From Herpetosiphon llansteffanensis (GTDB taxonomy: Bacteria; Chloroflexota; Chloroflexia; Chloroflexales; Herpetosiphonaceae): DNA of 64,000 nucleotides. The stretch is from assembly GCF_003205875.1 (NCBI RefSeq), contig NZ_PUBZ01000089.1:1-64000 (forward strand). Direction: 5' to 3'. Positions 1,516 through 2,130 of this stretch are shown here, piece by piece. Within the stretch, counting starts at the first letter, position 1. Each line of letters starts with the position of its first letter. The notes under the pieces were generated by a model. That model was not told the origin of the DNA and made no database searches. It worked only from the letters and a program-made list of their open reading frames with translations. The position numbers were made by a program, and so were the translations under genes.

Positions 1516-2130
1516 TTACTAGTGGGGGTCGGGGATTAGGGATCGGGGATCAGATAATGGGATTTATTTAACCACGAAGAGCACGAAGAACACGAAGGTT
1601 TAAGTTATTGAGTCCCAAATACTTATTCGTGCAATTCGTGGCTAAAACGTCTGATTTTTAACGCAGAGGCGCAGAGAAATGATGGCTTGTGGCGCTAGGC
1701 TATCGGAATATTTGTATGAAGTCCATGATCATACGTTCTATAGCCACAAGCCAATAGCCAATAGCCAATTTCCCCTTCGTGCTCTTTGCGTTCTTCGCGG
1801 TTTAGTGCCTTCGTGGATTACATTTTTAACGCAGAGCAATGATGGCTATGGGCTGATGGCTTTGTGTATTGGTATATTAACCACCTCATGCTCGATCCCC
1901 TCACCCTAACCCCTCTCCCGTGGCGCGGGCGAGGGGCTTTAACACCGTGGTTCTGTCGCAATGCGTGGTAAAAAACAGATGCTCCCCCTCGCCCGCGTTC
2001 AGTGGGAGAGGGGGCTGGGGGGTGAGGGAACACAATCTACTAGCCCACAGCTAATAGCCTTTCTTCGTGCTCTTTGCGTTCTTCGCGGTTTAGTGCCTTC
2101 GTGCTCTTCGTGCCCTTCGTGGATCAAAAC
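1516..2130. repeat. Mosaic intergenic repeat cluster containing a palindromic element
   Basis: Motifs gggatcggggatcag, acgaagagcacgaagaacacgaagg, attcgtgcaattcgtggctaaaa, tttaacgcagaggcgcagagaaatgatggct and agccaatagccaatagcc. The 43-bp block cttcgtgctctttgcgttcttcgcggtttagtgccttcgtg occurs twice (1775-1817 and 2063-2105). The same motif set recurs at 34365-34850, 40876-41280 and 48950-49330. Confidence 0.8.
1896..2029. repeat. ~135-bp palindromic (inverted-repeat) element, MITE/REP-like
   Basis: Left arm cccctcaccctaacccctctcccgtggcgcgggcgaggggc is near-perfectly complementary to right arm ctccccctcgcccgcgttcagtgggagagggggctggggggtgagggg, with a ~44-nt loop. A second copy lies at 49124-49258 and a fragment at ~18905-18945. 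Confidence 0.75.

Follow-up and report, generated by a model that had tools for sequence, protein, structure and literature searches.

Ordered intergenic repeat arrays in Herpetosiphon share the arm design of a cross-phylum repeat family associated with GxxExxY genes

The window analysed here is a 64,000-nt stretch of Herpetosiphon llansteffanensis (contig NZ_PUBZ01000089.1, positions 1-64,000), in which four intergenic regions hold clusters of short repeats. We confirmed that these clusters are real, ordered arrays built from directional repeat units (here called arms), runs of tandem heptamers and a small transposon relic that resembles a MITE (a miniature transposable element with inverted repeats). 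The arms have the design of a repeat family found across phyla; two arm types, C and D, carry its repeat core, and C is identical to it over the whole arm. This cross-phylum family is, in turn, tightly and directionally associated with genes encoding GxxExxY proteins. The eight genes that flank the clusters are ordinary (SPFH, glycosyltransferase, ABC permease, sigma-70, DegV, Mrp/ParA, patatin and GAF-STAS), and none of them is a transposase, cas or integrase gene.

Repeat clusters occupy a few intergenic gaps

Matches of 14-mers within the window were concentrated only at 1573-2112, 34406-34723, 40957-41210 and 48976-49327, and positions 1-57 have heptamers in common with these four clusters. 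Using dinucleotide shuffles to set the expectation, we counted 8 occurrences of CACGAATTNCAC (1.4 expected), 22 of TTCGYGNNCTTCGYG (0.4 expected) and 4 of TTTTAACGCAGAG (0.09 expected). None of the three observed counts was reached in 100 shuffles, and all matches lay inside clusters. A preliminary description of this DNA had proposed a motif vocabulary shared by five regions, and these counts bear it out for the four intergenic regions and the start of the window. Its account of the flanking genes was likewise accurate: cluster 2 is preceded by an ABC permease and cluster 3 by DegV.

Modules were present in 4 of the 21 intergenic gaps of ≥100 nt and absent from genuine coding sequence. Module matches at 49299-49333 fall in an over-long open reading frame (ORF) call of the GAF-STAS gene and not in real coding sequence; because the orthologous gene encodes 312 amino acids (aa), we place the start near 49422. 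Convergent, tandem and divergent gene pairs are all represented among the cluster contexts. In a collection scan with one motif, the window showed ~92% identity to H. giganteus, H. geysericola and Herpetosiphon sp. NSE202. The motifs recur beyond the window, in at least 38 stretches from four Herpetosiphon species, and thus form a dispersed family, in keeping with how they had been described. Coordinates of the features are given in Table 1.

Table 1. Positions of repeat clusters, arms, heptamer runs and MITE copies in the window.
Feature	Position	Strand	Details
Partial cluster at window edge	1-57		CCCAATC heptamers 1-19 (reverse of GGGGATY type); CTTCATC 27-57
Cluster 1	1516-2130		Convergent neighbours: SPFH/Band-7 gene ends 1515, glycosyltransferase ends 2131
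Heptamer run, module G	1524-1551	+	GGGGATC x4
Arm, module A	1566-1597	+	Head atttaac, then CACGAAG x3, nonamer period
Arm, module C	1625-1647	-	ttttagc, then CACGAATTGCACGAAT; motif conserved across phyla
Arm, module F	1655-1676	+	tttttaa, then CGCAGAGGCGCAGAG
Heptamer run, module E	1740-1769	+	ATAGCCA x4
41-bp perfect direct repeat, copy 1	1775-1815	+	Includes module B/A arm, minus orientation, 1775-1806
MITE copy 1, truncated	1865-2030		Left outer inverted repeat TGTATTGGTATAT... from 1865; hairpin core 1896-2029; right outer inverted repeat missing
41-bp perfect direct repeat, copy 2	2063-2103	+	Includes module B arm 2063-2094, minus orientation
Arm, module A	2097-2128	-	tttgatc, then CACGAAG x3
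Cluster 2	34365-34797		Convergent neighbours: ABC permease ends 34362, sigma-70 gene ends 34851
66-nt segment, modules d + c	34445-34510	+	100% repeat at 34588-34653; 143-bp tandem duplication of composite unit
Arm, module D	34450-34472	-	ttttagc, then CACAGATTGCACAGAT; other copies 34583-34615, 34685-34708
Arm, module C	34479-34510	-	CACGAAT x3; second copy 34622-34653
Arm, module F	34530-34551	+	cttttaa, then CGCAGAGGCGCAGAG
Arms, modules B and A	34710-34793	-	B 34710-34741 CGCGAAG; A 34760-34793 CACGAAG
Cluster 3	40876-41250		Between DegV (ends 40875) and Mrp/ParA-type gene (starts 41311)
Cluster 3 heptamers	40878-40905; 41187-41242		GATCAGG; TTCATCC x8
Cluster 3 arms	40948-40970; 40972-40994; 41000-41023; 41063-41084; 41094-41125; 41155-41186		Third D; fourth F, minus; fifth C; sixth B, minus
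Cluster 4	48975-49335		Between divergent patatin and GAF-STAS genes; contains the MITE
Cluster 4 arms	~48984-49005; 49008-49039; ~49042-49066		C; B; D
Cluster 4 heptamers	49076-49094; 49298-49328		TATGTTC; TCATCCC x4
Target-site duplication, left	49088-49093	+	TCTATG
MITE copy 2, complete, 194 bp	49094-49287		Outer inverted repeats TGTACTGGTTCAT / ATGAACCAGTACA; GC-rich hairpin core 49124-49258
Target-site duplication, right	49288-49293	+	TCTATG

Arms and heptamers follow a recurrent grammar

Each arm begins with a T-rich head that ends in A[AG]C; two or three tandem 8-10-mers with the core CRCRRAK come after it. Every one of the 24 arms in the window (22 mapped, 2 read directly) is of this head-plus-nonamer design, in five dialects: A (CACGAAG), B (CGCGAAG), C (CACGAAT), D (CACAGAT) and F (CGCAGAG). 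Within clusters, arms alternate with heptamer runs (micro-arrays of GGGGATC, ATAGCCA, TTCATCC and TATGTTC), the periods being 7-10 nt. A generic arm detector placed 33 of its 73 window matches within the 3.3% of the window occupied by clusters, and all 33 carried CRCRRAK.

Across the 38 Herpetosiphon loci, modules recurred in the order A-B-C-D-E-F(-I-H), also as the reverse complement: A, B, C and D share one orientation, E heptamers come next, F has the opposite orientation, and I and H follow. Individual modules may be absent or duplicated within this order. Cluster 2, for example, has the grammar e-d-c-f-e-d-c-d-b-a; of its nine arms, the eight that belong to modules A-D lie on the minus strand and the single module F arm lies on the plus strand. 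The module A arms at 1566-1597 and 2097-2128 are mutually inverted and therefore bracket cluster 1. The motifs had previously been described as varying in order and orientation; a recurrent grammar was found instead, and because module order recurs, the arrays are better regarded as copies of a composite unit than as a free mosaic. When the Herpetosiphon loci were searched for small genes lying between arms of one dialect, the brackets that emerged were merely coincidental.

The C arm is found in distant phyla

The 19-mer of the C arm, TTTTAGCCACGAATTSCAC, was found without mismatch in more than 103 stretches, at least 65 of them outside Herpetosiphon, where by our own estimate ~9 would be expected by chance. 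Its hosts include Flavobacterium isolates, Saprospiraceae, Chitinophagaceae, Pyrinomonadaceae, Caldilinea, Thermoflexales, Desulfobacterales and others. Acidobacteriota and Desulfobacterota are among the phyla represented, and the usual form of the arm there is a gene-less hairpin. The 65 listed stretches hold 67 C-arm sites (two stretches carry two copies), and among these listed matches 33 of the 67 sites have an inverted partner (≥17 of 24 positions matching) 40-130 nt away. These hairpins are intergenic, often 2-30 nt from a stop codon; few of them lie between divergent genes (2 of the 33), and two more sites are overlapped by an ORF call.

Read on either strand, a C hairpin consists of a T-run, arm, loop, arm and A-run in that order, opposite in polarity to a terminator, and the variable positions of paired arms are not compensatory. 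Rfam 15 gave no gathering-score match in the window or in 18 hairpin loci, and relaxed thresholds returned generic hairpin noise. Taken together, reverse polarity, lack of compensation and the absence of an Rfam family point to recognition by a protein rather than to an RNA helix or terminator.

The same observations bear on the clusters themselves, which had been put forward as possible terminators or insulators. Structured RNAs, or terminators and attenuators at operon ends, would suit the convergent genes around clusters 1 and 2, the very stable hairpin of the MITE core, and cluster 3, whose fold pairs inverted B arms and is somewhat better than shuffles (z = -2.75). However, the arrays in their entirety are not structured: the fold of cluster 2 does not improve on that of its shuffles (z = +0.96). 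Cluster 4 is situated where divergent promoters lie, and the clusters contain just two marginal 5-bp terminator-like matches. With the polarity, compensation and Rfam results added, we regard this explanation as very improbable, and the terminator or insulator role was not upheld.

The C arm had no match among viral contigs (IMG/VR), nor were any GxxExxY relatives confirmed there; a phage vehicle is thus absent from IMG/VR.

In the Thermoflexales metagenome-assembled genome (MAG) JTS-AC224, five contigs (L020, L026, L040, L042 and L082) are near-identical over ~130 nt around the C arm (...ttctctaccgtacactttctgcccggagtgaattctgcgagaacaatgccgagat-arm-...). This larger dispersed repeat, hairpin included, suggests recent spread within one genome.

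Arms bracket GxxExxY genes

Outside Herpetosiphon, arms also surround a small gene. At L044, a locus in a Desulfobacterales MAG, 12 tandem C units of 42 nt lie on one side of a 123-aa gene and at least 6 in inverted orientation on the other (arrays at 2119-2620 and 3020-3390, with an assembly gap on the side of the ≥6 units), and the cassette sits between two sugar-nucleotide genes of a polysaccharide operon. The encoded protein is a GxxExxY protein (TIGR04256 at 1.5e-43; PF13366, PDDEXK_3). The D...ELK catalytic motif of these proteins is invariant, and no solved structure was matched by sequence. PF13366/TIGR04256 is a large family listed as of unknown function, with multiple transfers (PMC3424549).

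We examined the 80 metagenomic loci that were the best tblastn matches to one GxxExxY subfamily. Arm density was 6.9 per kb within 200 nt of the gene, compared with 0.39 per kb elsewhere and 0 inside it. Orientation was strongly biased, with 93 plus and 17 minus arms upstream and 78 minus and 25 plus arms downstream. Convergent arms bracketed the gene at 41 of the 80 loci (median outer span 466 bp), and an inverted 22-mer common to both flanks (≥18 matches) was found at 41/76 loci as opposed to 5/76 after permutation. The nonamer dialect varied from locus to locus but was equal on both sides of the gene at 36 of 40 loci, when 14 were expected and 1000 permutations gave at most 23. GxxExxY proteins with a common dialect share 59.8% identity, versus 51.8% otherwise. 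Similar brackets occur in isolates and MAGs, including a plasmid of a Bernardetia isolate with CACAGAG arms. These data show that the association of the cross-phylum arm family with GxxExxY genes is both tight and directional.

Dialects at GxxExxY loci comprise CACGAAT, CACAGAT, CGCAGAC/T, CACAGAA, CACGAAA and CGCAAAT; the consensus CRCRRAN fits all of these and all five Herpetosiphon dialects. At L044, L064, L104, L107, L109, L122 and L129, the dialects are those of the C arm itself (GCCACGAATTSCACGAAT) and of the D arm's repeat core, CACAGAT. Dialects A, B and F closely resemble arms near GxxExxY genes and are not identical to them. We defined the bracketing arm family by a T-rich head plus at least two tandem 8-10-mers with the core CRCRRAN, and all 24 window arms fit this head-plus-tandem-nonamer definition.

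At L064 (3770-7970), pairs of C hairpins delimit four small cassettes downstream of a glycosyltransferase gene: GxxExxY first, then MntA/HepT and two further small gene pairs. The layout is like that of an integron cassette array, yet attC cores and an integrase were not seen there.

A degenerate CRISPR array (short palindromic repeats, clustered and regularly interspaced), which the preliminary description had named as a finding that would overturn it, or a set of integron attC sites, would account for the clustering of repeats and, at L064, for attC-like hairpins separating small toxin-antitoxin cassettes. Against this, the repeats have no repeat-spacer periodicity, no cas or integrase gene flanks the clusters, and the arms, as read from the sequence, lack the attC core sites RYYYAAC/GTTRRRY. 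CRISPR is excluded for the window because the periods are 7-10 nt without spacers and the flanking genes are not cas genes, and we consider this pair of explanations barely conceivable and, for the window, refuted.

We found no literature linking GxxExxY to repeats, within the limits of the searchable library, and nothing relevant on Herpetosiphon repeats; raw motif strings matched primers only. In H. aurantiacus, Carboxydothermus, Deinococcus maricopensis and Thermotoga lettingae, eight genes are reported to have a putative mobile promoter upstream (PMC3488235).

Clusters are old, conserved and prone to rearrangement

The clusters occupy equivalent positions in H. giganteus, H. geysericola and sp. 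NSE202 and, since these positions are shared among sister species, they are older than the species splits. Modules aligned between species are 91-94% identical, compared with 82.7% at third codon positions of an adjacent gene (p = 3e-5 to 0.02). Something therefore keeps the modules near consensus, either selection or homogenization between copies.

At the same time, the clusters rearrange, as had been suggested when they were described as possible recombination hotspots. In the window, the two copies of a perfect direct repeat of 41 bp (1775-1815 = 2063-2103) bound an insertion of 288 bp that the three sister species lack, and cluster 2 contains a 143-bp tandem duplication (34445-34510 = 34588-34653). 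In H. geysericola, a ~230-bp tandem duplication takes in the last 15 nt of the upstream gene. Slippage, with changes in unit number between species, also alters the arrays.

Upstream of the GAF-STAS gene, the TTCATCC/TCATCCC run numbers ~4 copies in the window (49298-49328) and, at the orthologous sites (L184 and L191), ~16 in NSE202 and ~25 in H. geysericola. Length change of a heptamer run in this divergent promoter region could alter expression.

One alternative is that the arrays are host-functional platforms for protein binding, serving nucleoid organization, supercoiling control or insulation and kept by selection, the likeness to nuclease-associated arms being ancestral or incidental. 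Repetitive extragenic palindromic (REP) sequences and bacterial interspersed mosaic elements (BIMEs) of E. coli bind integration host factor and gyrase. Conservation of orthologous modules above third codon positions, the fixed module order, the persistence of clusters at equal sites in four species and the suitability of tandem 9-10-nt sites for multimeric binding all agree with such a role. On the other hand, only 4/21 intergenic gaps carry arrays, and they do so in convergent, tandem and divergent contexts alike; arrays vary freely between species (4, 16 or 25 copies of the H run; indels of 288 and 230 bp); and the identical arm occurs in unrelated phyla alongside a selfish-looking nuclease gene. 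We judge this explanation rather unlikely.

Alternatively, the arrays could be microsatellite-like simple sequence produced in place by replication slippage, with neither mobility nor a dedicated protein. Periods of 7-10 nt in 2-8 copies, copy numbers that differ between species and similar heptamer runs in cyanobacteria and Beggiatoaceae (PMC4679880) fit this idea. Slippage cannot, however, put one 19-25-nt head-plus-nonamer at dozens of unlinked loci and in other phyla, nor can it yield a conserved order of unlike modules or matched inverted arms around one gene family. It is thus largely refuted for the arms, staying viable only for changes in the length of heptamer runs, and as an explanation of the arrays it is improbable.

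A MITE-like element that probably inserts into the heptamer runs

The two palindromes of the window are 85% identical over 140 nt and fold into ~40-bp stems (z-scores of -6 to -9.6). Outer inverted repeats, TGTA[CA]TGGTTCAT...ATGAACCAGTACA, enclose the GC-rich hairpin in the two window copies and in several others; in the complete window copy, the terminal inverted repeats TGTACTGGTTCAT... and ...ATGAACCAGTACA are present at 49094 and 49287. These observations support the view that the 135-bp palindrome is the core of a 194-bp MITE-like element. The preliminary description, which had recognized a ~135-bp MITE-like palindrome in two copies, was right about its character, although it had seen no more than the core of a longer element, one that has many more than two copies in the genus.

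Both ends were read in the window copy, in L051, L102, L047, L010 and L087, and in a degenerate copy in L053; the right end of L069 lies beyond the stretch read. The search for target-site duplications that had been proposed around the palindromes revealed one of 6 bp, perfect in four copies (TCTATG in the window and L102, CATAGA in L047, GATAGC in L010) and imperfect in L051 (5/6) and L087 (4/6). Its 6-nt offset is inconsistent with continuation of the 7-nt host run. Targets fit NCTAKN, and insertion is probably into heptamer runs. Copies are 170-195 bp long and non-coding, with at least 15 further core copies or fragments in ~300 kb of Herpetosiphon loci; a pattern search for the outer-repeat motif gave 8 sites in these loci and 3 in the window. 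Core-only hairpins and half-cores without outer repeats also exist, and the site orthologous to MITE copy 2 holds such a half-core in NSE202 and H. geysericola.

Insertion sequences (ISs) of the IS481 family duplicate a 6-bp target, NCTAGN (PMC3053399). Judged by its TGT ends and NCTAKN targets, the MITE resembles an IS481-derived element: its ends begin with TGT and it has a 6-bp duplication at an NCTAGN-like site (TCTATG, GATAGC, CATAGA and, less perfectly, TCTAGG/CCTAGC). It differs in that the fifth target base is more often T than G, in its unusual GC-rich hairpin core, also found without outer repeats, and in that no cognate transposase with the MITE ends was found in the sampled DNA. 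Likewise, the Herpetosiphon loci sampled yielded no autonomous, full-length element that has the ends TGTAMTGGTTCAT.

In H. aurantiacus-type genomes (L185), the region upstream of the patatin gene has another neighbour (a Ser/Thr kinase) and a compact 66-nt perfect GC-rich hairpin. This hairpin lacks outer inverted repeats, and the hairpin core thus exists as an independent element. Within the window, a 20-nt segment at 18916-18935 (gap 18784-19002) is a 95% match to the right arm of the MITE core (TCGCCCGCGTTCAGTGG...) and may be a relic of another copy.

Interpretation of the clusters

On balance, we lean towards reading the clusters as long-lived piles of gene-less modules, namely arms, heptamer micro-arrays and a MITE with a hairpin core. 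The arms would be local dialects of the cross-phylum repeat family, whose inverted arms elsewhere form gene-less hairpins of 65-150 nt or bracket the 123-aa GxxExxY gene in a unit of ~470 bp. They may serve as recognition sites for a sequence-specific protein, for which a GxxExxY-type nuclease, either acting in trans or present in the past, is the most likely candidate. Arms would be copied as composite units and kept near consensus by protein recognition or gene conversion, any effect on neighbouring genes being a by-product, and the MITE would insert into heptamer runs at NCTAKN with a 6-bp duplication, in an IS481-like manner.

Several observations weigh against this account. The conservation of modules above third codon positions could equally reflect host function. 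No GxxExxY gene was found in the window or the 38 Herpetosiphon loci (~370 kb), nor on Herpetosiphon plasmids in PLSDB, and the link between Herpetosiphon and the nuclease consequently rests on other phyla. Arms of unlike dialects (C or D with F) are paired in Herpetosiphon, whereas GxxExxY brackets are nearly always of one dialect, and nothing equivalent to the heptamer modules E, G, H and I was seen in the GxxExxY loci examined. The 80 metagenomic loci, chosen as best matches to one subfamily, are not a random sample of the family. In three pairs of related metagenomic contigs (L107/L109, L122/L129 and L127/L131), the cassette lies at an equal site, which speaks for low mobility, and turnover is therefore not fast. 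Finally, neither a clean empty site nor a transposition event was observed.

More tentatively still, and as a possibility that we would not yet call probable, CRCRRAN arms and the 123-aa GxxExxY nuclease may constitute an undescribed cross-phylum class of compact selfish elements (arm, gene, inverted arm; ~470 bp), with intergenic hairpins, tandem arrays and the ordered multi-dialect arrays of Herpetosiphon, kept close to their consensus, as gene-less derivatives. We regard this putative partnership of repeat and nuclease as a lead rather than proof.

Other features of the window

A 586-aa AAA_21/AAA_15 (AbiEii/OLD-like) ATPase gene at 55931-57691 is located in a stretch with a GC content of 33-36%, compared with ~50% in the rest of the window; it was probably acquired horizontally and is probably of defence type. 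There are also two pairs of neighbouring paralogues without Pfam matches (5482-5570/6112-6200 and 60189-61193/61309-62394), with nucleotide repeats of 64-89 nt at 72-87% identity. The repeats were also compared by eye with the consensus sequences of DnaA boxes, parS, attC, Tn7- or Mu-type ends and TA-target Tc1/IS630 ends; as they matched none of these, such readings were set aside.

Comparison with known systems

The closest working analogy is with REP/BIME sequences and with REPINs (REP doublets forming hairpins) and their REP-associated tyrosine transposases (RAYTs) (PMC2817692, PMC3116915, PMC3733652). Like REPs, the arms are short, abundant intergenic repeats, mostly at gene 3′ ends, that occur singly, in inverted pairs and in clusters; like REP/RAYT systems, they include a small single-gene enzyme between inverted copies of its own repeat, and gene-less copies far outnumber gene-bearing ones. 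A REP is defined as an imperfect palindrome of 20-40 nt with a GTAG or CGTC tag (PMC3733652). The arms, by contrast, are direct tandem nonamers without self-complementarity rather than GC-rich palindromes, they bear no GTAG/CGTC tag, and the gene that they bracket encodes a 123-aa PD-(D/E)XK nuclease, not an IS200/IS605-type tyrosine (Y1) transposase. The arm sequence is, moreover, common across phyla, whereas REPs are lineage-specific. Lacking the palindrome and the tag, and with an enzyme of a different fold, the arms do not belong to the REP/BIME class.

The heptamer runs recall two other families. Short tandemly repeated repetitive (STRR) heptamers and small dispersed repeats are known from cyanobacteria (Elhai et al. 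2008, Genome Res 18:1484, as cited in PMC5861425), and TAACTGA heptamers are common to Beggiatoaceae, Cyanobacteria and Bacteroidetes, with no known mechanism; the latter paper makes no mention of Herpetosiphon or Chloroflexota (PMC4679880). As in these families, intergenic tandem heptamers occur in filamentous or gliding bacteria, small elements and MITEs are nested in the runs, and one short repeat is found in distant phyla without a known vehicle. However, the heptamer sequences differ, neither family is tied to a nuclease gene, and the dominant units in Herpetosiphon are head-plus-nonamer arms in a fixed order. The units also differ from the STRR1-3 sequences, and the host belongs to Chloroflexota and is not a heterocystous cyanobacterium.

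Intervening sequences of 23S rRNA provide a further comparison, as they are a small selfish-looking gene within inverted repeats that is tolerated inside a transcription unit; they differ in their four-helix-bundle protein gene, their location inside rRNA and their processing by RNase III.

IS200 measures ~700 bp. Should the partnership prove real, the ~470-bp arm-GxxExxY unit would be smaller, a large protein family listed as of unknown function would gain a role, and the presence of identical short repeats in distant phyla would be explained. For decades, STRRs, small dispersed repeats and TAACTGA runs have been without a known enzyme or vehicle, and the GxxExxY nuclease is a testable candidate for one such family. 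For annotation, the arrays come with a simple recognition rule, together with a new Herpetosiphon MITE. If the link holds, arms and nuclease would be partners in the manner of REP and RAYT, with an enzyme of another fold, and might amount to an autonomous DNA element of very small size.

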